Source: Candidatus Uhrbacteria bacterium (lineage in GTDB: Bacteria; Patescibacteriota; Patescibacteriia; 2-12-FULL-60-25). From it: a stretch of 64,000 nt of DNA. Under the pieces are notes generated by a model, which worked only from the letters and a program-made list of their open reading frames with translations, was not told the origin of the DNA and did no database searches. A program made the translations under genes and the position numbers. The stretch lies in contig JACQMO010000015.1 in assembly GCA_016203535.1 (NCBI GenBank), forward strand, positions 37,295 to 101,294, given 5' to 3'. Each line of letters begins with the position of its first letter. Positions within the stretch are counted from its first letter, which is position 1. This document shows, one piece after another, positions 6,596 through 59,496 of this stretch.

Positions 6596-9310
6596 ATGCC
6601 GGACACGCTCCAGCCTGTTGCGATTGTCTGCGCGTCCTGCGGCGGTGATCCGCGCGCCTCGCAAACCTGCAAGATGTGCGGCGGCGCGGGGATCGGCGTC
6701 GCATCGCCGGACGGGTTTCTCGTCTGGAGCGAGCCCGTCGACGAGGGAACGATTTTTCTTCGCAAGATGCGGCGAACCGTGACGCAGGCGTTCCACGTCC
6801 TTCTCTTCTCGCTCGGATTGGGGAGCGCCATCCCGCTCATCTGGCGCATCATGACGCAGGACGAATTGAACGTCGCATTACGAGCGGCATTTTGGACGGA
6901 CGGCCATTGGACGCTCACGTTGTTTTGGGCCGGGATTCTTCTTGATTGCTTCCTGGTTTTCCGGCTGATCGAATATTCCCGCGAGGAAAAACCGCTTCCG
7001 ACATGGAAGCTTTCCAAGGGACGCCTCGCGGCCTATGACGCGGCCGCGCCGTCCCGCGCCGCGCACCGGTTCGACGTCGGCCCGTTTTTTTCACGCGACG
7101 CGAGGGAAATTTTAGAAACCTCCTACACCATTTCCAAGGATTTGCGCCGCACGGAAATTCGTCCGGAAGTGTTATTCGCCGCCGCGCTGACGAGTTCGTC
7201 CGGAGGAATTTTCCGCGCGCGGCTTGCCATGGATTTCGACAAGGTGAAGGAACCGCTCGCAAAATTCCTCGTGGCGGAATTGCCCGGCGGCAACCCGCCG
7301 ATCGCGCTCTCCCGCGAACTGAAACGGACGCTCGCGCTCGCGTATGCCGATGCGCGCTCCGAACGCCGGCAGTATGTCGGGCCGATGGAGTTGCTCCTCC
7401 AATCGTTTAAGGACAGCCCGAAACTGCAGGAATTGTTCGACCGGTTGGGATTCCCGCCGCTCCACGTCCAGCGTGTTGCCGAATGGATCCGGCTTCAGGA
7501 GCAGCTTCGGGAAGACCACCAGCGGTTCGTGGCGTTAGCTGCACTCAAGCCGAAATCCGGCATGAACCGCGCGATGACCGCACTTCAGGCGCCGCTTCTT
7601 GACAGATACAGCCAGGACCTCACGCTTGCCGCGCGCGCCGGTCAGTTGTCACCGCTCGTTGGCCGGGCACGCGTGTATGAGCTGATGCTGCAGGGGATTG
7701 AAAGCGGACGCCGGTCGGTTGTTCTGGTCGGGGAAACCGGCGTAGGAAAAACCGCATTGGTGGACGAGCTCGCGCGGCGGATGGTCGAAGAAGACGTGCC
7801 TCCGGAATTGTTCGACCGCCGGCTCGTCTCCATCAACCTGGCGCAACTCGTGGCCGCCGGCGACCCATCGCTCGCGGCTGAACGCCTGTTCGCGATGCTG
7901 CAAGAGGTCGGCGTGTCCGGAAATATCATTCTCGTCGCCGAGGGAATTGAGGCGCTTACGGGATTCGGTGGCGGCGGCCCGATGGATTTGGCCGAGATGT
8001 TCGCGTCCGAACTCCAAAAGGGCTATTTCATCACCATCGCGACGACGACGCCGGACGCGTGGACCAGCCACCTCGAACGCCGCACGCTCGGAACGAAACT
8101 CATTCGAGTGGACGTCCCGCCGCTCGAGGCGGACGATGCGCTCCGCGTACTCATGGCGAAAAGCGGCCGCATCGAAGTGGGGCAGAAGGTGTTCTGCTCG
8201 TACGCGGCGCTGGAAAAAACCGTCGCCCTCGCGCTGCGCTACATCCACGAGATCGCGTCGCCGGAAAATGCGTTGAACATCCTGCGCGAGGCCGCGGTCC
8301 GTGCGCGAAAAGCACGCGGCGAGCGGACGTTCGTCACGGCCGAGGACGTCGCCACGGTCGTGCAGGAGAAGACGCGGATCCCGGTCGAAGCCGTCGGCGC
8401 CCATGAAACCGAAAAACTTTTGTCCCTCGAAGACCATCTGCACGCGCGGCTCATCGGCCAGCACGAGGCGGTCACGGCGGTGGCGCAGTCGCTCCGACGG
8501 GCCCGAGCGGAATTGCGTGAAGGGAAGCGGCCGATCGCGAACTTTTTGTTCCTCGGCCCGACCGGCGTCGGAAAGACCGAACTCGCAAAGTCGCTCGCGG
8601 CCGAATATTTCGGCGACGAGAAGCTCATGATCCGCCAGGACATGTCGGAATACCAGGACCGTTCGTCCGTCACGCGGCTCATCGGCGCGCCCGGCGACCA
8701 GCGCGGCGGACTGCTCACCGAAGCCGTTCGACACAATCCGTTCTCGCTCATCCTGCTCGACGAAATCGAAAAAGCGAATCCGGACATCTTGAACCTGTTC
8801 CTGCAAGTCATGGACGACGGCCGGCTGACCGATGGCGTCGGCCGAACCGTGGATTTTACGAACGCCATGGTCATCATGACGTCGAACGCCGGGACGTCGT
8901 TCATCCAGGAAGAAACGACGAAGGGCACGCCGCTCGCGACGATCAAGACCGCGCTCATCGAACGGGAGTTGAAGGGTCTTTTCCGTCCGGAGTTCCTCAA
9001 CCGATTCGATGGGATCATCCTGTTCAAGCCGCTCACGCAGGATGAAGTGGCGCAAATCGCCTGGCTCCAAATCAACGCCATCGCCAAACGGCTGGAGGAA
9101 AAGGCGATCACGTTCACTGCGGAAGACACCGCCGTGGAACAGCTCGCCCGCGACGGGTTCGATCCGCTGTTCGGAGCTCGTCCGCTCCGGCGCGTGATAC
9201 AGGACAAGGTGGAAAACGGTTTGGCGGACCTTCTGCTCCGACAAGCCGTCGGTCGCGGCGATCGCGTCCGGTTGCAAGCCGACGGGACACTCAAGGTGGA
9301 AAAGGGGTAA
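6596..9310 (+). CDS. Clp/Hsp100-family double AAA+ ATPase with N-terminal CxxCxGxG zinc-finger and TM helices
   Basis: Two P-loops (GETGVGKT, GPTGVGKT), Walker B-2 LILLDEIEKA, sensor/arginine-finger GARPLRR and a Clp-N-like repeat. The N-terminus carries CASCGG..CKMCGGAG plus two hydrophobic helices. I placed the start at ATG 6596, 2 nt after the upstream stop. Confidence 0.9.
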   Translation: MPDTLQPVAIVCASCGGDPRASQTCKMCGGAGIGVASPDGFLVWSEPVDEGTIFLRKMRRTVTQAFHVLLFSLGLGSAIPLIWRIMTQDELNVALRAAFWTDGHWTLTLFWAGILLDCFLVFRLIEYSREEKPLPTWKLSKGRLAAYDAAAPSRAAHRFDVGPFFSRDAREILETSYTISKDLRRTEIRPEVLFAAALTSSSGGIFRARLAMDFDKVKEPLAKFLVAELPGGNPPIALSRELKRTLALAYADARSERRQYVGPMELLLQSFKDSPKLQELFDRLGFPPLHVQRVAEWIRLQEQLREDHQRFVALAALKPKSGMNRAMTALQAPLLDRYSQDLTLAARAGQLSPLVGRARVYELMLQGIESGRRSVVLVGETGVGKTALVDELARRMVEEDVPPELFDRRLVSINLAQLVAAGDPSLAAERLFAMLQEVGVSGNIILVAEGIEALTGFGGGGPMDLAEMFASELQKGYFITIATTTPDAWTSHLERRTLGTKLIRVDVPPLEADDALRVLMAKSGRIEVGQKVFCSYAALEKTVALALRYIHEIASPENALNILREAAVRARKARGERTFVTAEDVATVVQEKTRIPVEAVGAHETEKLLSLEDHLHARLIGQHEAVTAVAQSLRRARAELREGKRPIANFLFLGPTGVGKTELAKSLAAEYFGDEKLMIRQDMSEYQDRSSVTRLIGAPGDQRGGLLTEAVRHNPFSLILLDEIEKANPDILNLFLQVMDDGRLTDGVGRTVDFTNAMVIMTSNAGTSFIQEETTKGTPLATIKTALIERELKGLFRPEFLNRFDGIILFKPLTQDEVAQIAWLQINAIAKRLEEKAITFTAEDTAVEQLARDGFDPLFGARPLRRVIQDKVENGLADLLLRQAVGRGDRVRLQADGTLKVEKG

Positions 9311-26498: not shown

Positions 26499-27908
26499 AT
26501 GGAATTGAAACAACTCAAACGTGTCCACCTGATCGGCGTCGGCGGGATCAACATGAGCGCCGTCGCCAAGCTTCTTCTCGCAAACGGCGTGAAGGTGTCC
26601 GGCTCCGATGTCGCCGAGAACGAACAGACGACGCGGCTCGCGGAACGCGGGGCGATCATCAAGATCGGCGAGGCGGCGGAACATATTCCGGAGGGTTGCG
26701 AGCTCGTCATTACCACGTCCGCCGCGCCGATCACGAACAAGGAGCGGATGGCCGCGGCCGAGCGGAAGATCCCGGAACTGACGAATTTCGCGTTTTTGGG
26801 CCGGTGGTTTTCCGATGCCCAAACCGTCGTTATCGCCGGAACACACGGGAAAAGCAGGACGACCGCCATGCTGGGATTGATGCTTGAAAAAGCGGGGAAG
26901 GACCCGACCGTGATTGTCGGAAGCAAAGTCCCGTCGTTTCCGGACGGGAATCTTCGGCTCGGACGATCGGATCTGTTCGTGGTCGAAGGGGACGAATACG
27001 CCAAACATTTTTTGGAATTTCGTCCGCACGCGGTCATTCTGAACAACCTCGAGCTCGATCACACGGACACCTTTCCGACGATCAACGCGATGTTGGAGGC
27101 ATTTCATGAGCTCGTCGGACAGGTGAAGGACGGCGGGATCGTCGTCGTCAACACGGCGGACGAACGGCTTGCGCGGCTCATCGAGACGGAACGGGAATCG
27201 CTTGTCGCGCGCGGCATCACCGTCATCCCGTTCGGGGCCGGGGAGCATGCGTGGAAGGTCGAGAGCGCGCAACAGGAAGCGGCAAGACCGGTCACCATGA
27301 CGCGCGGCAGTGAAACGATGACGTTCACCATTTCGGTCCCCGGCGCGTTCAATGCGATGAATGCGGCCGGCGCCGCGCTCATGGCGCAATCGCTCGGGGC
27401 AACGCACGAGGACATCGCGGCGGCGTTATCCGGATTTTCCGGGATTTGGCGCCGGTTCGAATATCTCGCGACCACCCGTGGCGCTCCGGTCTATTCCGAT
27501 TACGGACATCATCCGACCGCCGTGGCCGCGACGCTCCGGGCCGCGCAGGAAACGTTCCCGAACGACCGCATCGTGCTGTGTTTCCAACCGCACCACCGCA
27601 ATCGGACGCGGGCGTTATTTCTTGATTTCGTCACGTCGTTCGACCTCGCGGAAGCGCTCATCCTCTGCGAGATCTACGAGGTGAGCGGCCGCGACGAGGA
27701 TGCGGACAAGCATATTTCGTCGCGCGACTTGGTGGATGCGGTCATGCGGCACGACGCTGACCGCGGCGTGAAACGTCCGCTCGAATACGCGCCGGATCCC
27801 GCTGCGGCGGTCCGTCGGACGCTGGAACTCGTCGAGTCCACGGACGTTGTGATTTTCATGGGAGCGGGGGATATTGATGGCGAGGTGAGGAAGGTTGTGA
27901 AGCCGTGA
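26499..27908 (+). CDS. murC: UDP-N-acetylmuramate--L-alanine ligase
   Basis: VHLIGVGGINMSAVAKLL, AGTHGKSRTTAM and the Mur ligase central and C-terminal domains. Confidence 0.92.
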   Translation: MELKQLKRVHLIGVGGINMSAVAKLLLANGVKVSGSDVAENEQTTRLAERGAIIKIGEAAEHIPEGCELVITTSAAPITNKERMAAAERKIPELTNFAFLGRWFSDAQTVVIAGTHGKSRTTAMLGLMLEKAGKDPTVIVGSKVPSFPDGNLRLGRSDLFVVEGDEYAKHFLEFRPHAVILNNLELDHTDTFPTINAMLEAFHELVGQVKDGGIVVVNTADERLARLIETERESLVARGITVIPFGAGEHAWKVESAQQEAARPVTMTRGSETMTFTISVPGAFNAMNAAGAALMAQSLGATHEDIAAALSGFSGIWRRFEYLATTRGAPVYSDYGHHPTAVAATLRAAQETFPNDRIVLCFQPHHRNRTRALFLDFVTSFDLAEALILCEIYEVSGRDEDADKHISSRDLVDAVMRHDADRGVKRPLEYAPDPAAAVRRTLELVESTDVVIFMGAGDIDGEVRKVVKP

Positions 27909-27930
27909 GCCGTGTACCGTGAACCGTATG
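27903..27930 (+). repeat. Tandem heptamer array CCGTGAG|CCGTGTA|CCGTGAA|CCGTATG
   Basis: Read directly. The first unit contains the murC TGA stop and the last unit contains the murB ATG. Confidence 0.85.
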
Positions 27931-36167: not shown

Positions 36168-37057
36168 ACATCATCGCCTGGCGAAAAATTTGGTATGTCT
36201 TCTCCGGTCTGCTCATCGCCGGATCCGTCGCGGCCGTCGCGTCGTTCGGGTTGAAGCAGGGGATCGACTTTACGGGCGGTTCGCTCCTGTCGGTCCGGTT
36301 TGAGGCGGCGCGCCCGTCTCCCGTCGAGGCGGAACAGGCGCTCGCCGCGCTCGATCTCGGCGCGATCACGGTCCAGCCCGTCGGGGACACGGACATGAAT
36401 TTCCGGCTGAAAGTGTTGGAGGAGCAGACGCACCAGGACGTCGTCCGGATCCTGAACGAACGGTTTGCGACGACGACCGAGCTCCAGTTCAACTCCATCG
36501 GCCCGTCCATCGGAAAGGAGCTGCGCCAGAAGTCCATCACCGCGCTCGTCATCATCTTTCTCTCCATCCTCGCGTACATCGCCTGGTCGTTCCGAAAAGT
36601 ATCCGCACCGATCCAGTCCTGGAAATACGGCGTCATCACGATCGCCACCGCGTTCCATGACGTGATGCTGCCGATCGGGGCGTTCGCCATCCTCGGGAAA
36701 TACGCGAACGTGGAGATCGGAACGCCGTTCATCGCTGCGATCCTCACCATCATGGGATATTCGATCAACGACACGATCGTGGTCCTCGACCGCGTGCGGG
36801 AAAACCTCCAGCGCGGAAGCGGGACGTTCGAGGACATTGTGGAACGGTCGGTCAAGCAGACGATGCTCCGATCCTTCAACACCTCGATGACGACGCTGCT
36901 TTCCCTTGTCGCGGTGTATTTTTTCGGCGGCGCTTCCATCCGGGACTTCGCCCTTGCGCTCATCATCGGAATCGCGACCGGAACCTATTCTTCGATTTTC
37001 ATCGCCTCTCCGCTGCTCGTCACGTGGAATGCGTGGAGCCGTAGGAAGAGGTCGTAG
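36164..37057 (+). CDS. secF: Protein translocase subunit SecF
   Basis: ATGA overlap with secD. GIDFTGGS and the 6-TM SecF core (GYSINDTIVVLDRVRE). Confidence 0.92.
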   Translation: MNIIAWRKIWYVFSGLLIAGSVAAVASFGLKQGIDFTGGSLLSVRFEAARPSPVEAEQALAALDLGAITVQPVGDTDMNFRLKVLEEQTHQDVVRILNERFATTTELQFNSIGPSIGKELRQKSITALVIIFLSILAYIAWSFRKVSAPIQSWKYGVITIATAFHDVMLPIGAFAILGKYANVEIGTPFIAAILTIMGYSINDTIVVLDRVRENLQRGSGTFEDIVERSVKQTMLRSFNTSMTTLLSLVAVYFFGGASIRDFALALIIGIATGTYSSIFIASPLLVTWNAWSRRKRS

Positions 37058-37081
37058 GTCGTAGGCGGTAGGTCGTAGCGA
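37041..37081 (+). repeat. Tandem heptamer array ...GTAGGTC|GTAGGCG|GTAGGTC|GTAGCGA
   Basis: Read directly. TAG occurs at 37042, 37055 (the secF stop), 37062, 37069 and 37076. Confidence 0.85.
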
Positions 37082-40570: not shown

Positions 40571-41248
40571 ATGGCTGAACGCATCACCTTTAAGACGACC
40601 GACGGCGTTGAGATCGTCGGGGATTGGGTCACGGCGCCCACCACCTTCGGTGCAGTCGTTTTGCTGCACATGATGCCGCTCGATCGGACGTCCTGGAGGG
40701 CCTTCCAGCAGGCGCTTTCTGACCGCGGTCTCGCCTCGCTCGCCATCGATTTGCGCGGGCACGGCGAGAGCCTCGAAAGTTCCGAAAGCGGCAAGCTGGA
40801 TTACACGACCTTTTCGGACGAGGAGCACCAGTCGTCCCTCCTTGACGCCATCGGGGCGTTCGACTGGATCCGCCGCCGCGGGTTCGAACCCACCCGGATC
40901 TCCGCGTGCGGCGCGTCCATCGGCGCGAACCTGGCCGTGCAGCTCCTGTTGGAACAGCCCCAAATGTCCGGTGCGGCGCTCCTGTCCCCCGGAAGCAACT
41001 ACCACGGAACGAACGCCGTGTCGGACGCCGCGTCGGTGCTCGACCATCAGGGGATCTGGATCGCGGCATCCGAAGGGGACGACCAGGAATCGTTCGAAGC
41101 CGCGCAGGCCGTGTCGGACGCCGCGTCATCCACACGGAAGACCATGGTTCCGCTCAAAAACGCCGGCCACGGGACCGCGATGCTCCAGTCCCATCCGGAG
41201 CTGGTTGCGAATCTTGCGGACTGGCTCAAGGAAACCATCCAGGGGTGA
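40571..41248 (+). CDS. Alpha/beta hydrolase (dienelactone-hydrolase-like)
   Basis: Nucleophile elbow GASIGAN, HG..LESS region, C-terminal NAGHG. Confidence 0.7.
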   Translation: MAERITFKTTDGVEIVGDWVTAPTTFGAVVLLHMMPLDRTSWRAFQQALSDRGLASLAIDLRGHGESLESSESGKLDYTTFSDEEHQSSLLDAIGAFDWIRRRGFEPTRISACGASIGANLAVQLLLEQPQMSGAALLSPGSNYHGTNAVSDAASVLDHQGIWIAASEGDDQESFEAAQAVSDAASSTRKTMVPLKNAGHGTAMLQSHPELVANLADWLKETIQG

Positions 41249-41258
41249 CGCAAGACTT

Positions 41259-42137
41259 ATGCCGCGACGTCTCCTGCTTCTCTGCATGCCGGCGCTGTTT
41301 TTTCCGCTGCAGACGCTCGCGGCGACGTCCACCCCCGACGTCCCCTCGGCGACGTCCACATACGCGCGCCGGGACGGCGAGTTTTCCGCCGCCCTCGTGA
41401 TGGACGCACGGACGAAGAAGGTCCTCTATGCCTATCAGGCAGACCTCGCCTGGCCGGCGGCGTCGCTCACCAAGCTCATGGGCGCGCTCGTCTTTCTGGA
41501 TTACCGTCCGTCCTGGAACACCATCGTCTCCATCAAGAAACAGGACGAGGTCGGCGGCGGACGCCTGCGCGTGAACTCGGGCGCGACGATGTCCGTCCGT
41601 GACATGCTTTACTCGAGCATCACCGCGAGCGCGAACAACGCCGCGACGGCGCTCGCGCGGATCACGCTCGGGCGGACAGCGTTTGTGCGCGCGATGAACC
41701 GGAAAGCGGCCAAGCTTGGGCTCGCGGAGACGCATTTCGTGGACCCGTCCGGCATCAGCCCGAAAAACGTCACGACCGCCCGCGACATGGCTAAGCTGGC
41801 GCTCGCGGCGTTTTCGGTCGACGCGATCCGACGTCCGGCGACGACCGCGTCCTACCGGTTCAAGATCCGGAATACCGGCGAGGTGAAGACGCTCAAAAGC
41901 ACGAACGACCTCCTGATCGCAGAGGCGTACGACGACGTGTTCGTGACCGGAGGGAAAACCGGGTTTTTATACGAGTCCGCGTACAACCTCGCGGTGCGCC
42001 TGAAACCGCTCGATCCGGCCAAAAAGCTTCCAAACCTCCTCGTGGTGGTGTTCGGATCGCAGACGCGCGAATCGTCATTCGAGAGCGCCCGCTCCCTTGC
42101 CACATGGGCCTGGAACGGGTATACGTCCTCTCAATGA
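41259..42137 (+). CDS. D-alanyl-D-alanine carboxypeptidase (peptidase S11)
   Basis: Signal peptide, an SxxK active-site motif (ASLTK), an SAN motif (SxN-type) and a GKTG motif (KTG-type). Confidence 0.85.
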   Translation: MPRRLLLLCMPALFFPLQTLAATSTPDVPSATSTYARRDGEFSAALVMDARTKKVLYAYQADLAWPAASLTKLMGALVFLDYRPSWNTIVSIKKQDEVGGGRLRVNSGATMSVRDMLYSSITASANNAATALARITLGRTAFVRAMNRKAAKLGLAETHFVDPSGISPKNVTTARDMAKLALAAFSVDAIRRPATTASYRFKIRNTGEVKTLKSTNDLLIAEAYDDVFVTGGKTGFLYESAYNLAVRLKPLDPAKKLPNLLVVVFGSQTRESSFESARSLATWAWNGYTSSQ

Positions 42138-50566: not shown

Positions 50567-50601
50567 CTACGGTCTACCGTCTACGGTCTATTGTCTATAC
50601 G
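50567..50601. repeat. Tandem heptamer array CTACGGT|CTACCGT|CTACGGT|CTATTGT|CTATACG
   Basis: Read directly. It fills the whole rplQ-rplM spacer, from the TAG stop to 1 nt before the ATG. Confidence 0.9.
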
Positions 50602-51525: not shown

Positions 51526-51556
51526 GCAAAAACGTGCGCACATGCGCACGTTTTGC
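51526..51556. terminator. Bidirectional rho-independent terminator
   Basis: GCAAAAACGTGCGCA-CA-TGCGCACGTTTTGC: the GC core of the stem is flanked by an A-run and a T-run. Confidence 0.65.
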
Positions 51557-54794: not shown

Positions 54795-54815
54795 CTACCG
54801 TCTACCGTCTATCTC
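54795..54815. repeat. Tandem heptamer array CTACCGT|CTACCGT|CTATCTC
   Basis: Read directly. It is the entire 21-nt spacer between the TAG stop (54792-54794) and ATG 54816. Confidence 0.9.
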
Positions 54816-57209
54816 ATGAAAGACTTCCGCATTGTCATCGTCTCCTGGAATGTCGAGAGACTTCTCGAGCGATGTTTGAAATCTTTGCCCGAGGCGTGTG
54901 ATGGATTGGATTGGGACGTCGTGGTTGTAGATAACGCTTCGTCCGACGAGAGCGCAAAAAAGGCCGAGGGGCTCATGAGCGAATGGGCAAATGGGCATGT
55001 GATCATAAATCCAGAAAATCGAGGGTTCGCGAAAGCCTGCAATCAGGGGATCGATGGGTATAACGCGCGGTACGTATTGCTTTTAAATCCAGATACCGAA
55101 TGTCCACCTGGATCGCTTTTTCATTTCATCAACGCCGCCGACTCCACAGATAGGCGGACGTCCGACGTCCGACATTCGGCGGACGTCGGACGTCCGACAG
55201 GGATACTTGGGCCACGGCTTGTAGAAACGGACGGGAAACATCAACCGAGCGTCCGCGGTTTTCCCAACGTCTGGAATCAGATGGGGATTTTGTTGAAACT
55301 GCATCATGTCTTGCCGTGGTTCTTCCGGAAGTATTTCAACGGAAGCGAGCAAGTGATGGGCGCCTGTTTTTTGATCCGTCGCGAGCTTCTCGAGCAAATC
55401 GGCGGGTTGGATGAACGCTATTTCATCTGGTTTGAAGAAGTTGATTTTTGCAAACAAGCGAAAGCGCGCGGCTGGGAGGTGCGGTATGAACCGTCCGTCA
55501 CGGTGATCCACCACGGCGGGCAATCATTTGCACAGGTCATGTCAGCTAAAAAGCAGGCGATGTTCAACGATAGTTTGAAAAAATATTTCAAGAAATGGCA
55601 TCCGGGATGGCGGGCTTGGCTGATTTCTCTCGTATGCCCGGCTGCATTGCTGGAGACGAAAATTATTGGAATTGTCTCTTCCAATATAGTTCTCGCATGG
55701 GTTCTCGGGATCGCGCTATTCGAGCTCGTATCGCTTGCCACGGTGTTCAATCCGGTTCCGCGTGCCGTGGCCACGGTCGCGGTTGGACTGACTGTTTTCA
55801 TGGCGGCGATTCGTCGGCCATCGTTCGCGCTCGCCATGCTGCTTGTCGAACTCATGATCGGCTCAAAAGGCGCTTTACTCAAGATTCCGAATGGATGGGA
55901 GGTGGATGGTGGCATTTCCCTCCGGATCGTGATAACGGCCGCTTTTCTGCTCGGCTGGCTGTATCGGCGGACGTCGGACGTCCGCCGATACGTCCGACAA
56001 TTGTCGGACGTCCGACGTCCGACAATTGGAGGTATTTCCAAGCCGTGGGTCGCTTTGGCGGCGTTATGTATGTGGGGGGTCATTCGAGGTTTCTGGCTAA
56101 AAAATCAGTTTCTCTTTCAAGATGCCAACGCCTGGGGATATCTTATTTTGCTGCTTCCGGTTCTCAATATTGCTCGGCGTGACTCAAAAAATCTTTTGCA
56201 CTACACGACACAGGCGGCTATAGCAGCTCTTTTGTGGGTTCCCATCAAAACTCTGACCTTGCTTTATGTCTGGTCTCACGGCATCAAATCGCTCTCGCAG
56301 CCGCTGTATCTTTGGGTTCGGCGAACAGGCGTCGGCGAGGTTACTCTCGTGACCGGAAATTTATTCCGTGTGTTCATACAATCGCAGGTGTACGCGATCT
56401 TCGCTTTACTCTTTGCGGCGGCGTATGTTGCACGAAGCAAACGGGTGACGCGGAACGGGGGCCCCCCAGCGACCGGAGACCAGCAGGTCGAGGACGATGG
56501 GGGTGGGCCGCGGCAGGACCCGTCATTTTGGGTGATCCCTATCGCTTCCGCCGGTTCCCTCCTCATCAGTCTCTCCCGCAGTTTCTGGGTGGGGTTCATC
56601 TGCGGCATCGCTTGCTTCAAATTGCTTGCCTGGCGGGCGAAGTTCTCCTTCTCACAATTTTGGAGCGTGGGATGGAGATTCGGCGCCGGATTCTTCGCGG
56701 CTGTCGGCCTAATTTTCGCGGTCGTCGCGTTCCCGTATCCGCCTGTCGATGTCGGATCGCTGGCGACGCTGTTCGGTTCGCGCGGATCCGTTTCGGACGC
56801 GGCGGCTGAAACGCGATGGAGTCTTCTTCCCGCCGTCATCTACAAAATCAAACAAGCGCCGATCCTTGGTTCCGGCTTCGGCGCGACCATCACGTATCAC
56901 TCGAAGGATCCTCGGATTCTCGCAAAAAATCCGTATGGCCTCTACACCACCTACGCGTTCGAGTGGGGCTGGCTGGAGCACTGGATCAAATTCGGGATTC
57001 TCGGTATTCCGGTGATGCTCTGGCTGCTCTGTTCCATCGTCCGACGTGCATGGAGATCCGACGGGCCGTGGTGGGTACGCACGGGATTCGTTGCATCCAT
57101 CGTCTCACTGGGCGCGCTCCACGTTTTCACGCCATATCTGAACCATCCGCTCGGCTTCGGACTCCTGCTCGCGGCGGAAGGATGGATCGTGGCCACGAAG
57201 CGCGAATAG
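54816..57209 (+). CDS. Fusion protein: GT2 glycosyltransferase (N-terminal) plus O-antigen-ligase/Wzy-like polytopic membrane domain
   Basis: N-terminus VIVSWN...VVVDNASSD...LLLNPD...FIWFEEVDFC is rhamnosyltransferase-like GT2. At least 10 TM helices follow, with a Wzy_C-like loop. It contains two in-frame palindromic inserts. Confidence 0.8.
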   Translation: MKDFRIVIVSWNVERLLERCLKSLPEACDGLDWDVVVVDNASSDESAKKAEGLMSEWANGHVIINPENRGFAKACNQGIDGYNARYVLLLNPDTECPPGSLFHFINAADSTDRRTSDVRHSADVGRPTGILGPRLVETDGKHQPSVRGFPNVWNQMGILLKLHHVLPWFFRKYFNGSEQVMGACFLIRRELLEQIGGLDERYFIWFEEVDFCKQAKARGWEVRYEPSVTVIHHGGQSFAQVMSAKKQAMFNDSLKKYFKKWHPGWRAWLISLVCPAALLETKIIGIVSSNIVLAWVLGIALFELVSLATVFNPVPRAVATVAVGLTVFMAAIRRPSFALAMLLVELMIGSKGALLKIPNGWEVDGGISLRIVITAAFLLGWLYRRTSDVRRYVRQLSDVRRPTIGGISKPWVALAALCMWGVIRGFWLKNQFLFQDANAWGYLILLLPVLNIARRDSKNLLHYTTQAAIAALLWVPIKTLTLLYVWSHGIKSLSQPLYLWVRRTGVGEVTLVTGNLFRVFIQSQVYAIFALLFAAAYVARSKRVTRNGGPPATGDQQVEDDGGGPRQDPSFWVIPIASAGSLLISLSRSFWVGFICGIACFKLLAWRAKFSFSQFWSVGWRFGAGFFAAVGLIFAVVAFPYPPVDVGSLATLFGSRGSVSDAAAETRWSLLPAVIYKIKQAPILGSGFGATITYHSKDPRILAKNPYGLYTTYAFEWGWLEHWIKFGILGIPVMLWLLCSIVRRAWRSDGPWWVRTGFVASIVSLGALHVFTPYLNHPLGFGLLLAAEGWIVATKRE
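55152..55199 (+). repeat. In-frame palindromic heptamer element (4 x GACGTC at 7-nt spacing)
   Basis: AGGCGGACGTCCGACGTCCGACATTCGGCGGACGTCGGACGTCCGACA encodes RRTSDVRHSADVGRPT. It contains the 14-nt perfect palindrome GTCGGACGTCCGAC (55185-55198). Confidence 0.85.
55962..56029 (+). repeat. In-frame palindromic heptamer element, second copy
   Basis: 29-nt palindrome TATCGGCGGACGTC-G-GACGTCCGCCGATA (55962-55990), 20-nt perfect palindrome CGTCCGACAATTGTCGGACG (55991-56010), then TCCGACGTCCGACAATTGG. It shares 21-nt and 19-nt blocks with the first copy and encodes RRTSDVRRYVRQLSDVRRPT. Confidence 0.85.
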
Positions 57210-57224
57210 ACGTATACTTTTTTC

Positions 57225-57398
57225 ATGGCGTTTCAGGATTTTTTCGATGACATCGAGCGGATCACGGATAGGTATCGTTCGACCCTTTCGTCGATCGAGA
57301 GACGGCAGCATGAACGTATCCGCGAGATCGCGCATGCCGTCGAGGCGAAGGAGGTCGAGAAGATCCGCGAACGTTTGAAAAAGGCATATGGCGCCTGA
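57225..57398 (+). CDS. Possible small coiled-coil protein (57 aa)
   Basis: Hand translation: MAFQDFFDDIERITDRYRSTLSSIERRQHERIREIAHAVEAKEVEKIRERLKKAYGA. It is below the ORF-track cut-off and overlaps the next ORF's ATG by 11 nt. Confidence 0.3.
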   Translation: MAFQDFFDDIERITDRYRSTLSSIERRQHERIREIAHAVEAKEVEKIRERLKKAYGA

Positions 57399-59496
57399 AG
57401 GGATGGAAACCGCGTCATCGGCGTCGGCGACGATTGAGCACGTGGCCTCTCCGAAGATCGAAACGCCGGTGGAACGAGAATCATCCCCTGAGGCTGCCGG
57501 TGCGGAATTGCTGGTAAACCTGGAAGATCGAACGTCGGCGCTCGATACGCGTGCCGAGGAGATTGTCACGCAGGGGCGTGAACGGTTCGACATTGCGGCC
57601 GCATCCGAACTTCTTCCTTCCGAGGACGCCGCGCCGTTCAAGGCAGAGGCGGAAAAGGCGCAAGAGGAATTTGCACAGGAAGCCGCGGGGGCAAAACAGC
57701 AGACGAGATCAGAGATCGCGGGGACCGTCGGCAAATGGATGAAAGAAAGTCCGCTGCTCAAGACGGTCCTGATTTCGGCCGCGCTGCACGTCCCGTTTAG
57801 TCCCTACGGAAAGGAACTGATGGATTCGTTGAAGGATCACGGCGCCGAAGTTCCGGAAACCGTCCTTCGTCCGCAGGGATACGACAACATGCTCGAAACG
57901 GCAGATCGAAAGGCGAAGCGCGAAGAACGTGTAGATGCTGACGTCGTGAGTTCGTATAAGAAGGACATGCGCGAGCGCATGGAAAAGGGCGAGCCGGTCT
58001 CTTTTGAGGAACTGTACCTGGATTTGGAACGGCTGAACGGCGTTTCGCCGGAGAGAGTGGAGCGCGCCAAACAAGAGGCCCATGGACGGATCGAGCGATA
58101 CTCACGCGAGATGGGCGAGGAGATCGATCCGGACGAACTTCGGTCGTTCGTTGGCGAGATGTACGGCGTGGACTCGAATTACGACTGGGGGCAGGCGTCG
58201 GTGGCTGAGTACTTCGAGAGCGGAAAACGGAACTGCGTCGCGATCGCCAAAGCCGAGGCGATCGTGCTCGAAGGGGTTATTCGGAATCTTCCGCCCGAAG
58301 CACGCCAGCGGTATGAAATAGGGATCAACAAGATGAAACAGCACGAAGTTGCCGCACTGACGATCCGCTCGAAGGACGGATCGTCGTTTCAGACGTTCAT
58401 GCTGGAAGGTGGCGTCGCAACGCTCGAAGGAGCGCGCGAGACCGAGGGGACGAAAACCGTATCGCTCGACCTGCTGAAACAGGGGATCGTGTCCGAAAAA
58501 CCGATTGCGGTCCAGGCGAAAGCCGGAGAGATTCAAAAAAGTCCGGATTTGCTTGTCGTGACGGACCAACCCGTCGACGACGGGATCGACGTCCAGGGAG
58601 ATTTGCGCGGATCGGAGTACGTCGTCCAGCAAGCCGAACTGCAGGGCGTGAAACCCGAAATCGTCCAACAGCCGGCGAAAGAACCGATGGAGGTGGAGAT
58701 TCTTGACGAAGGGCCGCAGGGGCCGGAAGTTGTCGCGACACTGGAACGGGACACCAACCTCACGTATATCCTGGATGCTCGGAGGTTGGTGAATCCGACG
58801 CCTGAAGCAGTAAAGGCGCTTGTTCCAAGATTGAAGCAAGAGAACAGTTTTGAAGTTCAGCTCCCGGATCTCACAGGATGGCCGGAAGAAAGTGTCCAAG
58901 AGTTGTTCGAGACGGACCTCCATTACTTGAATATCCCAACAACCCAGGAAAACGAGCTCGCCCCCGCACTTATGGATCTACTGAAGAAACGGGTTTCGAC
59001 TGATAATCCTGAAAAGTTGCCGCTGAAAAGTTTGAAAATGCTTCCCGGGCCGACGGAAGAAATTCCTCATTACATCCCTACGGAACAACTCCAGACGCTT
59101 GTCCAGGGGCTGAAAGGGATTGATCGGATTGACTTTTCGGATTTCGGATCAATTTTCATGAAGGAAGCAAAAATTGTATCTCAGGCGCCGGTTAAGGAGA
59201 TCGAACTCATTGCGTCAGACGAGGAAGTCATTCGTTTTCTCGCCAAGGCGAAGCCGAAGATCATTTTCCGAGCCGCGGATTATTTGTATAAAATGGATAT
59301 GCTTACGGATCTTGTTCGGTTAGAGAATATCGAGCCGAATATTGATATGGCTAACCCAGATGAGCTTGTCGAGCTCCATCAGCGGATAAAGAAGGAGGCG
59401 CCTCAAAGAAAAAAACTTCTCTTCGAGATCGAGCAGATGCTCGGAGATTATCAGTCAGAATCGAAGGAATCCAAAAAAACAACGGCGTCACTCTGA
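57388..59496 (+). CDS. Large hypothetical protein (702 aa), acidic, no recognised family
   Basis: Long ORF with protein-like composition and lower G+C than its neighbours. A possible Cys/His pair (GKRNCVAIAK ... KQHEVAAL) hints at a papain/transglutaminase-like core. Alternative start at 57403. Confidence 0.65.
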   Translation: MAPEGMETASSASATIEHVASPKIETPVERESSPEAAGAELLVNLEDRTSALDTRAEEIVTQGRERFDIAAASELLPSEDAAPFKAEAEKAQEEFAQEAAGAKQQTRSEIAGTVGKWMKESPLLKTVLISAALHVPFSPYGKELMDSLKDHGAEVPETVLRPQGYDNMLETADRKAKREERVDADVVSSYKKDMRERMEKGEPVSFEELYLDLERLNGVSPERVERAKQEAHGRIERYSREMGEEIDPDELRSFVGEMYGVDSNYDWGQASVAEYFESGKRNCVAIAKAEAIVLEGVIRNLPPEARQRYEIGINKMKQHEVAALTIRSKDGSSFQTFMLEGGVATLEGARETEGTKTVSLDLLKQGIVSEKPIAVQAKAGEIQKSPDLLVVTDQPVDDGIDVQGDLRGSEYVVQQAELQGVKPEIVQQPAKEPMEVEILDEGPQGPEVVATLERDTNLTYILDARRLVNPTPEAVKALVPRLKQENSFEVQLPDLTGWPEESVQELFETDLHYLNIPTTQENELAPALMDLLKKRVSTDNPEKLPLKSLKMLPGPTEEIPHYIPTEQLQTLVQGLKGIDRIDFSDFGSIFMKEAKIVSQAPVKEIELIASDEEVIRFLAKAKPKIIFRAADYLYKMDMLTDLVRLENIEPNIDMANPDELVELHQRIKKEAPQRKKLLFEIEQMLGDYQSESKESKKTTASL

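Follow-up and report, generated by a model that had tools for sequence, protein, structure and literature searches.

What are two blocks of almost perfectly self-complementary DNA doing inside a single, intact gene? The question is raised by a stretch of 64,000 nucleotides from a Candidatus Uhrbacteria bacterium (assembly GCA_016203535.1, contig JACQMO010000015.1, positions 37,295 to 101,294 of the forward strand; GC ~60 %), referred to in its entirety as the window, in which a 797-aa open reading frame (ORF) for a surface-glycan enzyme reads through both blocks. Its host belongs to the Candidate Phyla Radiation (CPR, Patescibacteria), bacteria with tiny genomes for which dispersed repeats have, to our knowledge, not been described. 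An earlier note made from the letters alone had proposed that the blocks are in-frame hairpin inserts that behave like Rickettsia palindromic elements (RPEs), which are said to go back to Ogata et al. 2000. We consider it rather probable that the blocks are copies of a very small, heptamer-based, palindromic hairpin repeat dispersed across CPR/Patescibacteria, which would resemble RPEs as well as REPINs, the hairpin-forming doublets built from REP (repetitive extragenic palindromic) units. The gene and the features within it are the following.

54816–57209, + strand: host gene, a 797-aa ORF encoding a GT2 glycosyltransferase fused to a Wzy_C/O-antigen-ligase-like membrane domain
55155–55196, + strand: block 1, 42 nt (14 codons), consisting of core C + ACATTCGG + core G and encoding RTSDVRHSADVGRP (aa 114–127)
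55155–55171, + strand: core copy 1, CGGACGTCCGACGTCCG, centre C
55180–55196, + strand: core copy 2, CGGACGTCGGACGTCCG, centre G, the reverse complement of core copy 1
55961–55991, + strand: palindrome A of block 2, GTATCGG-core(G)-CCGATAC, odd and perfect over 31 nt, with its core at 55968–55984
55990–56011, + strand: bridging palindrome, a 22-nt even palindrome ACGTCCGACAATTGTCGGACGT linking palindromes A and B
55998–56028, + strand: palindrome B of block 2, CAATTGT-core(C)-ACAATTG, odd and perfect over 31 nt, with its core at 56005–56021

The protein matches of the window mark it as Patescibacteria/CPR DNA, nearest to metagenome-assembled genomes of the Uhrbacteria type. Pfam assigns PF00535 and PF13641 to GT2 stretches within aa 4–244 of the protein and PF04932 (Wzy_C) to aa 576–731, and the gene is the last of a flippase-GT4-GT2-GT2/Wzy operon whose synteny is kept in all relatives examined. 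Both blocks are built around one unit. Four exact 17-nt odd palindromes, CGGACGTC[C/G]GACGTCCG, start at 55155 (centre C), 55180 (G), 55968 (G) and 56005 (C), and since exchanging the central C for G equals reverse-complementing the core, each block holds one core per orientation. The two cores of block 1 pair into a perfect 17-bp hairpin with an 8-nt loop, while palindromes A and B, in a block 2 that spans 55961–56028 as a whole, jointly encode YRRTSDVRRYVRQLSDVRRPTI (aa 382–405), a loop between transmembrane (TM) helices. Folding yields z-scores of −9.0 (block 1) and −9.3 (block 2) for DNA, and of −7.2 and −8.3, respectively, for RNA.

The earlier note had correctly recognised two highly self-complementary blocks through which the single ORF runs uninterrupted, and the two segments that they have in common: the 21-mer TCGGCGGACGTCGGACGTCCG lies at 55176 and 55964 and the 19-mer GGACGTCCGACGTCCGACA at 55156 and 56006, neither with a further copy in the window. 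It had seen the palindromes but under-called their sizes, and its first two GACGTC positions were off by one (55158 and 55165 instead of 55157 and 55164), its others being right. Pairs of GACGTC at 7-nt spacing start at 55157, 55182, 55970 and 56007 and nowhere else in the window. Matches to GACGTCNGACGTC with at most one mismatch number five in the window against 0.64 expected, a count reached in 0 of 100 dinucleotide shuffles. Tandem Repeats Finder reports a period of 7 at 55157–55198, 55968–55982 and 56003–56023, with ~2.4 GACGTCN units per core, and both blocks thereby consist of head-to-tail 7-nt units in the manner of heptameric simple sequence repeats (SSRs) and short tandemly repeated repetitive (STRR) sequences. 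As had been anticipated for a repeat residing in coding DNA, the core and both blocks are free of stop codons in all six frames.

The origin of the two blocks was traced by aligning the window protein with 31 orthologues of 47–64 % identity (alignment A1). Block 1 corresponds to a clean 14-aa (42-nt) gap in 31/31 orthologues, and the gap equals exactly core + 8 nt + core. Judged by this alignment, block 1 is a recent, lineage-specific in-frame doublet insertion in the GT2 loop, in line with what the earlier note had proposed for both blocks. For block 2 that proposal holds in part: its palindrome is absent from the distant orthologues L119, L120 and L121, which have an ordinary YWFxxRK...RGR loop at this site, but it is not private to the window, as each of the three nearest relatives carries a perfect odd palindrome of other sequence in what is a length-variable loop. 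These measure 33 nt in L001 (TCCGACGTTGGACATC-G-GATGTCCAACGTCGGA) and L004 (TCGGAGGTCCAACCTC-C-GAGGTTGGACCTCCGA) and 21 nt in L003 (CTCCGACGTTGAACGTCGGAG, plus an imperfect partner), compared to two of 31 nt in the window. Six arm positions distinguish L001 from L004, each of them altered on both sides of the palindrome and none on one side only; in L003 two pairs differ from the consensus core, both compensated. The encoded peptides of the relatives are only loosely similar (R-[RG]-[WL]-T-S-[DE]-V...), the opposite of the conserved peptide in synonymously diverged, non-palindromic DNA that would have marked an ordinary protein motif. Masking the insert regions, a neighbour-joining tree groups the window protein as the sister of the three relatives (P0002–P0004). 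We infer that site 2 was occupied once, already in the ancestor of this four-genome clade. Based on the masked tree, the palindromes of the sister genomes and the palindrome-free distant orthologues, the parsimonious history would be that palindromy at site 2 was maintained while sequence and peptide drifted, and that the doublet at site 1 arrived much later, in the window lineage only.

An AlphaFold2 model computed from alignment A1 (mean pLDDT 86.2, pTM 0.81) places the block 1 peptide between helix 100–117 and strand 128–136, with 10-residue pLDDT means of 54 and 70 and values below 50 at residues 118–121. The block 2 peptide lies across the junctions of helices 369–386, 389–399 and 403–427, with pLDDT means of 84, 67 and 64 and values below 50 at 402–404. 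The model thus shows both inserted peptides in predicted loops of low confidence, where the earlier note had placed them (a GT2 loop and a loop between TM helices).

The core extends well beyond this gene. A scan of GTDB with one genome per species for CGGACGTCNGACGTCCG returned at least 114 stretches, the copy numbers being lower bounds, and at least 22 of these stretches, holding at least 25 copies, are from CPR genomes, mostly of 35–50 % GC, for whose composition chance predicts about 1e-4 copies per 1-Mb genome. Among the matches listed, the CPR carriers comprise Saccharibacteria, Paceibacterota, Azambacteria, Nomurabacteria, Staskawiczbacteria, Kaiserbacteria and unclassified Patescibacteria, one closed genome included; the centre base is C or G in 25/25 CPR copies, and most copies sit at gene boundaries, with ~10/25 within ORFs. 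Palindromy continues past the core for a mean of 3.9 nt in CPR copies, against 0.35 expected and 1.06 in non-CPR matches, giving perfect palindromes of up to 41 nt. The flanking extensions vary from copy to copy, TGA-core-TCA being the most frequent. The usual density is one copy per 8-kb CPR locus, and one Paceibacterota metagenome-assembled genome (MAG) has at least five copies on 4 contigs. As nine element-free loci of close relatives (about 150 kb) contain no copy of the core, the distribution in CPR is patchy. Wherever two cores form a doublet, namely window blocks 1 and 2, L059, L103 and L109, one has a C and the other a G centre (5/5); doublets measure 39–42 nt, hairpins fold with z-scores of −6 to −9.6, and block 1 (17 bp) and the L059 doublet (22 bp) each form a single hairpin. 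L109 has a 29-nt palindrome in two identical copies, separated by 2.7 kb, with a pair of ordinary-looking genes between them, neither of which resembles a transposase.

The scan also returned matches outside CPR. Those in Actinomycetota and similar genomes of 60–74 % GC agree with the chance prediction. In marine Gammaproteobacteria the match belongs to longer intergenic (GACGTCN)n arrays, and GACGTC-heptamer microsatellites therefore exist beyond CPR. The core also lies inside longer (GACGTCN)n arrays in L010, L014, L025, L061 and L118 (Streptomyces, Chloroflexaceae, Gemmatimonadaceae, Alcanivorax and Zhongshania), and a Bacteroidetes MAG (L089, 796–855) has two exact cores and part of a third within ~100 nt. 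Heptamer repeats based on GACGTC may thus have come up repeatedly among bacteria as a type of repeat. A viral vector was considered and rejected: the single IMG/VR match, on a contig of 63 % GC and with centre A, fits chance. Comparing the composite of element-encoded peptides with databases yielded only two short ORFs, both called across GACGTCC arrays, the motif being too short for database-wide statistics.

In other CPR genomes, as in the window, the core is read through in genes that have nothing to do with each other. ORFs identified by Pfam include RpoB, IleRS, a GatA-type amidase, a TrxB-like oxidoreductase, a PIF1-type helicase and a GT/TPR protein with at least three core copies; a phosphoglucose isomerase has the core at its C-terminus. 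In Omnitrophota, two loci carry a centre-T variant, one of them within a radical-SAM ORF. Copies occur in each of the three reading frames, producing RTSDV, GRPTS/GRRTS and DVRRP/DVGRP. In rpoB of L059, from a genome of 39 % GC, two cores form a 47-nt nested palindrome inside domain 6. Exactly 14 residues are missing at this position in nine relatives that are ~84–95 % identical, and the corresponding gap in the DNA measures 42 nt exactly, the filled site reading TAATT-core-GAATC-core-AATTT and the empty one AAAGG|CAAAACAGAA. Comparison with solved RpoB structures locates the insertion in a variable loop; by itself this comparison was unable to show an insertion, which the close relatives could. 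The same type of 42-nt two-core hairpin insertion is consequently found in two unrelated genes of distant CPR lineages. The singlets in IleRS and GatA comprise ~7 residues (~21 nt) each as read from the ORF, the empty-site comparison being that of rpoB. With cores in spacers and in frame in unrelated genes, and with the rpoB insertion verified, the RPE-like behaviour suggested from the window alone is borne out.

Two further observations concern these protein families. Another CPR RpoB (P0130 in alignment A2) carries, at the loop that holds the L059 doublet, an insert of 12 residues of other sequence (PARPHDDSG...AGG), which suggests that this loop is a tolerant or preferred insertion site. 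The core-bearing IleRS (L064, 3142–6744) has a whole His_Phos_1 domain (aa 542–708) inside its tRNA-synt_1 catalytic region, an unusual domain insertion.

Among known repeat systems, RPEs offer one point of comparison; according to PMC10969869 they are elements of ~150 bp, in ten families limited to Rickettsia. The CPR element shares with them in-frame palindromic repeats in many unrelated genes (block 1 of the window, six gene types elsewhere and the rpoB empty site), housekeeping genes among these, a lineage of reduced genomes, a fold-compatible peptide and an interpretation as selfish DNA. It differs in consisting of 21 or 42 nt of GACGTCN heptamers in Patescibacteria, where an RPE would be a Rickettsia family of ~100–150 bp, in being translated in all three frames, in residing mostly in spacers and in having one exact 17-nt core common to several CPR classes. 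REPINs, according to PMC3116915, are extragenic and have imperfect palindromes, a doublet spacing of 71–110 bp and a REP-associated tyrosine transposase (RAYT) gene flanked by the same REP. Here, too, short palindromes occur as inverted doublets that fold as one hairpin (all five doublets are inverted, block 1 and L059 being single hairpins), seem to be multi-copy in some genomes (at least five copies in the Paceibacterota MAG, and four, in one gene, in the 64-kb window) and are patchy among relatives, but the CPR doublets are shorter, no RAYT was found beside any copy, and the extragenic habit is broken by 4/4 window copies and roughly 10/25 CPR copies that are read through in ORFs. In L003, a Y1_Tnp (IS200/RAYT-type) gene at 4524–4973 lies between near-identical 23-nt hairpins GCCTCCGAGCGTTGCTCGGAGGC at 4266–4288 and 5951–5973, which are unrelated to the GACGTC core; REP/RAYT-like systems are therefore present in the Uhrbacteria-like clade, with another palindrome.

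Heptameric SSRs (cyanobacterial STRR sequences and the Xanthomonas GGGAATC repeat, PMC4692102) have in common with the CPR element the 7-nt period, a location mostly at gene boundaries, some inverted pairs and variability between relatives. They are, however, local and non-palindromic arrays, whereas the CPR element is a fixed palindromic block of 2.4 units, found as the same 17-mer at the CPR loci described above and entering coding DNA in quanta of 42 nt and apparently also of 21 nt. A further likeness is to the small dispersed repeats (SDRs) of Nostoc, reportedly (Elhai et al. 2008) 21–27 nt long, mobile-element-like, tied to heptamer tandem repeats and nested within one another; these are likewise very small (~20–30 nt) and dispersed, in another phylum and with another sequence, and they are not known for being translated in frame as part of conserved proteins. 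Quasi-palindrome template-switch mutagenesis, associated with Ripley and the Lovett laboratory, would explain the perfect arms, the two-sided changes between L001 and L004 and the spread of palindromy into the flanks, but it denotes a way in which mutations arise rather than a family of elements, and by itself leaves the dispersal of one fixed core unexplained. Miniature inverted-repeat transposable elements have terminal inverted repeats, a direct target-site duplication and a related autonomous insertion sequence; here the inverted repeat takes up the entire unit, the rpoB site displays no unambiguous direct duplication, and no insertion sequence was seen in the window ORFs scanned or the CPR loci. 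DNA uptake sequences (DUS) and uptake signal sequences (USS) occur roughly once per kb genome-wide, on both strands and in genes as well, a density far from four copies in 64 kb, all in one gene, or the usual single copy per 8-kb CPR locus. By analogy, the CPR element comes closest to RPEs in behaviour and to REPINs in architecture. Full-text literature searches turned up no pertinent report, either of the motif or of repeats in CPR/Patescibacteria that are palindromic, heptameric or in frame, and the element is apparently an undescribed, much smaller, heptamer-based and CPR-wide counterpart of RPE/REPIN-type elements.

How might such an element work? Its constant part is the 17-nt core, with singlets apparently adding ~21 nt (7 codons) and inverted doublets 42 nt (14 codons). 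Because a 21-nt period is a multiple of 3 as well as 7, and because all six frames are stop-free, insertion into a gene would keep the frame and add a short hydrophilic peptide of Arg, Ser, Thr, Asp, Val and Pro. Genic copies would then persist, through selection, only where a hydrophilic loop of 7 or 14 residues is harmless. Spread presumably takes place by a hairpin copy-and-paste at the DNA level, brought about either by a sequence-specific trans-acting enzyme, as in the REPIN/RAYT system, or by hairpin-promoted template switching during replication. Templated repair or template switching within the hairpin would keep the arms complementary and extend the palindrome into the flanks. Most likely, the element is either neutral or selfish, and dispensable for the host protein. 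The exactness of the core across deep lineages argues for sequence-specific recognition. We therefore put forward, tentatively, the more specific proposal that CPR hold an undescribed family of ultra-small hairpin elements (17-nt core, 21-nt unit, 42-nt doublet) that would be actively copied by a conserved sequence-specific trans-acting enzyme, move between CPR lineages and, being free of stops and a multiple of 21 nt, enter even essential genes (rpoB, ileS and gatA among them) in frame.

As heptamers are the building material of the element, their background frequency matters for what follows. The window and its relatives contain further heptamer arrays, identified by tandem-repeat finding, at gene boundaries.

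4023–4062, window: GGTACCT spacer array
6104–6134, window: CGTGTAA spacer array
27897–27927, window: GTGAACC spacer array
37049–37078, window: AGGTCGT spacer array
50567–50590, window: CTACGGT spacer array
54795–54811, window: CTACCGT spacer array
9189–9272, L003: heptamer spacer array
4146–4203, L004: heptamer spacer array

The unit changes from spacer to spacer, and even the spacer directly upstream of the GT2/Wzy gene holds a CTACCGT array in the window and CCTGAAA x7 in L004. The window and 25 CPR loci together (275 kb) hold 27 arrays in which a 7-nt unit is repeated three or more times, those containing GACGTC left out, against 1.05 in block-shuffled controls; no other period is enriched to this degree, the corresponding counts being 4 against 1.1 for period 6, 4 against 0.65 for period 8 and 6 against 0.5 for period 9. 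The kinship that the earlier note had seen between the blocks and the CGTCTAA/CGTGTAA heptamers is unproven: the heptamer class is strongly enriched, but the units differ; a common origin of the spacer arrays and the GACGTC element is conjecture. A heptameric SSR excess in bacteria is on record and has been put down, tentatively, to polymerase slippage (PMC4692102). For CPR we found no report of such an excess in the literature. The general heptamer excess was reportedly noted by Mrazek in 2007. The GGTACCT array includes a 26-nt perfect palindrome at 4024–4049 (GTACCAGGTACCTAGGTACCTGGTAC) made of GGTACC + 1 nt heptamers, and has the same design as the GACGTC unit, a 6-bp palindrome with one extra nt, so that units in tandem form a self-complementary array. 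It lies ~270 nt upstream of mraZ (4318) and is probably not an MraZ operator, because GTGGG-type, MraZ-box-like repeats stand apart from it, nearer to the gene.

Several observations weigh against a dispersed mobile repeat. The 64-kb window holds no core copy beyond the four in the GT2/Wzy gene, so that the further copies which the earlier note had suggested searching for were found in other CPR genomes and not here, and because all window cores lie in one gene, block 1 may be a local templated copy of block 2. Since (GACGTCN)n spacer arrays occur in unrelated phyla, part of the pattern would be ordinary heptamer microsatellite behaviour. No gene for a transposase, a Y1/RAYT protein, a recombinase or a restriction-modification system was found among the 45 window ORFs scanned (~14 small ORFs lay outside the scan), which includes the AatII-type system whose presence the earlier note had asked about. 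In a tblastn search, the Y1_Tnp of L003 had no match in the window or the CPR loci. At rpoB, comparison of the empty site AAAGG|CAAAACAG with the filled ...TAATT[...]AATTT... gives no unambiguous direct copy that would constitute a target-site duplication. Flanks that are palindromic but vary from copy to copy are unexplained by a transposable unit of fixed sequence alone, and the exact conservation of the 17-mer across deep CPR lineages also fits a selected functional binding site.

The last point leads to a reading that we think unlikely, in which the core is a functional nucleic-acid signal: a putative site for a conserved CPR protein (a regulator, an uptake receptor or a GACGTC methylase/nuclease) or an RNA hairpin for mRNA stability, processing or translational pausing, with coding copies placed where a loop tolerates them. 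It would account for an exact 17-mer in Saccharibacteria, Paceibacterota, Azambacteria and Nomurabacteria despite 35–50 % GC, for the gene-boundary location of most copies and for the preservation of the site 2 hairpin by compensatory changes across considerable divergence. At palindrome edges, G·T is somewhat above expectation (10/29 vs 4.9); this count, which bears on maintenance at the RNA or the DNA level, comprises 10 G·T, 6 A·C and 13 other pairs among the 29 and resembles transition decay. A signal of this kind is hard to reconcile with so sparse and patchy a distribution (four copies per 64 kb in one gene, zero in ~150 kb of close-relative loci), and it is not evident why a regulator would need sites within rpoB, ileS or gatA that 95 %-identical relatives lack. 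No Rfam family corresponds to it: an Rfam scan of the window gave zero matches at the gathering score and, in the blocks, sub-threshold hairpin look-alikes only. Moreover, the core sequence drifted in the sister genomes while palindromy alone was kept, which speaks against sequence-specific binding at site 2. The distribution of heptamers invites a more local account, in which nothing is mobile: slippage and quasi-palindrome template switching would have built site 2 from a hairpin-forming microsatellite, and a nascent strand ending in ...CGTCCG at site 1 would have copied ~42 nt from block 2, 800 nt off. Heptamers are indeed the dominant tandem repeat, their excess elsewhere is attributed to slippage, (GACGTCN)n arrays are found in unrelated phyla, the 19- and 21-nt segments are identical between the two blocks and have no other window copy, and the CGTCCG microhomology is present at the empty site 1 of L004, which reads AGCCGTCCGCGT. 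We nevertheless regard this account as distinctly improbable, since slippage events independent of each other cannot yield an identical GC-rich 17-mer at so many places in AT-rich genomes, the rpoB doublet of the 39 %-GC genome sits in a neighbourhood free of any donor, and block 2 in either orientation fails to give the core order of block 1 (C then G vs G then C).

Blocks 1 and 2 are mutually complementary over 37 nt at 84 %, and surface-polysaccharide genes are often phase-variable, so an intragenic switch comes to mind, in which recombination inverts or deletes the ~800-nt segment and turns the surface-glycan enzyme off or shortens the isoform. Core-to-core deletions of 813 and 825 nt would stay in frame, and inversions would cut the ORF to between 157 and 301 aa. 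For an inverton the inverted repeats are thus in place, but the scanned window ORFs include no recombinase, the alternative orientation was not observed, and single copies in rpoB, ileS and gatA cannot act as switches; any switch would be unique to the window genome because block 1 is absent from all relatives. We deem it very improbable. Least credible of all, to the point that we give it almost no weight, is that the palindromes are an assembly or sequencing artefact or that they encode an ordinary conserved protein motif. Chimeric assembly can create palindromes, and a 20-nt palindrome at the end of L004 is an example; the core, however, sits in the interior of contigs that stem from many independent projects and assemblers, one closed genome among them, and long ORFs are preserved across it. 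The protein-motif explanation is rejected because the DNA is conserved while frame and peptide vary, between copies as well as between orthologues.

A few features of the surrounding window stand apart from the element. The polysaccharide flippase gene that opens the glycan operon has its ATG (51542) inside a 26-nt palindrome, AAAACGTGCGCACATGCGCACGTTTT, at 51529–51554 (12-bp arms, 2-nt centre), which could be an operator or a translation-control hairpin. Downstream of the GT2/Wzy gene, a 702-aa ORF without a Pfam match (57388–59496) separates it from fmt, which directly follows the GT2/Wzy gene in L001, L002, L003, L119 and L120, with two small ORFs intervening in L121; as fmt adjoins the GT2/Wzy gene in most relatives examined, the ORF looks like a lineage-specific insertion by gene-order comparison. 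The GC content of the 54–60 kb stretch is 0.53–0.57, against ~0.61 in the rest of the window. Within a D-Ala-D-Ala carboxypeptidase ORF (40842–42137), GACGTCC occurs three times at 13–14-nt spacing (41320–41359), encoding a low-complexity linker, ATSTPDVPSATST, after the signal peptide; these repeats are non-palindromic and probably unrelated to the palindromic element. A tRNA search of the window found none.

If the dispersed-repeat explanation is true, the blocks in the GT2/Wzy gene would represent a new and minute class of selfish or mobile DNA, with an enzyme or a replication quirk behind its spread. Under the more specific proposal of an actively copied family, it would rank with the smallest mobile DNAs on record and be a recurrent source of loop insertions in CPR proteins. 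The element would explain some lineage-specific loop insertions of CPR proteins, and it could serve as a marker of recent DNA exchange among uncultivated lineages. It would also be a warning to annotators and assemblers about hairpin-forming inserts in conserved genes. Finally, the long-noted heptamer excess of bacteria would be tied to a concrete, testable hairpin mechanism.

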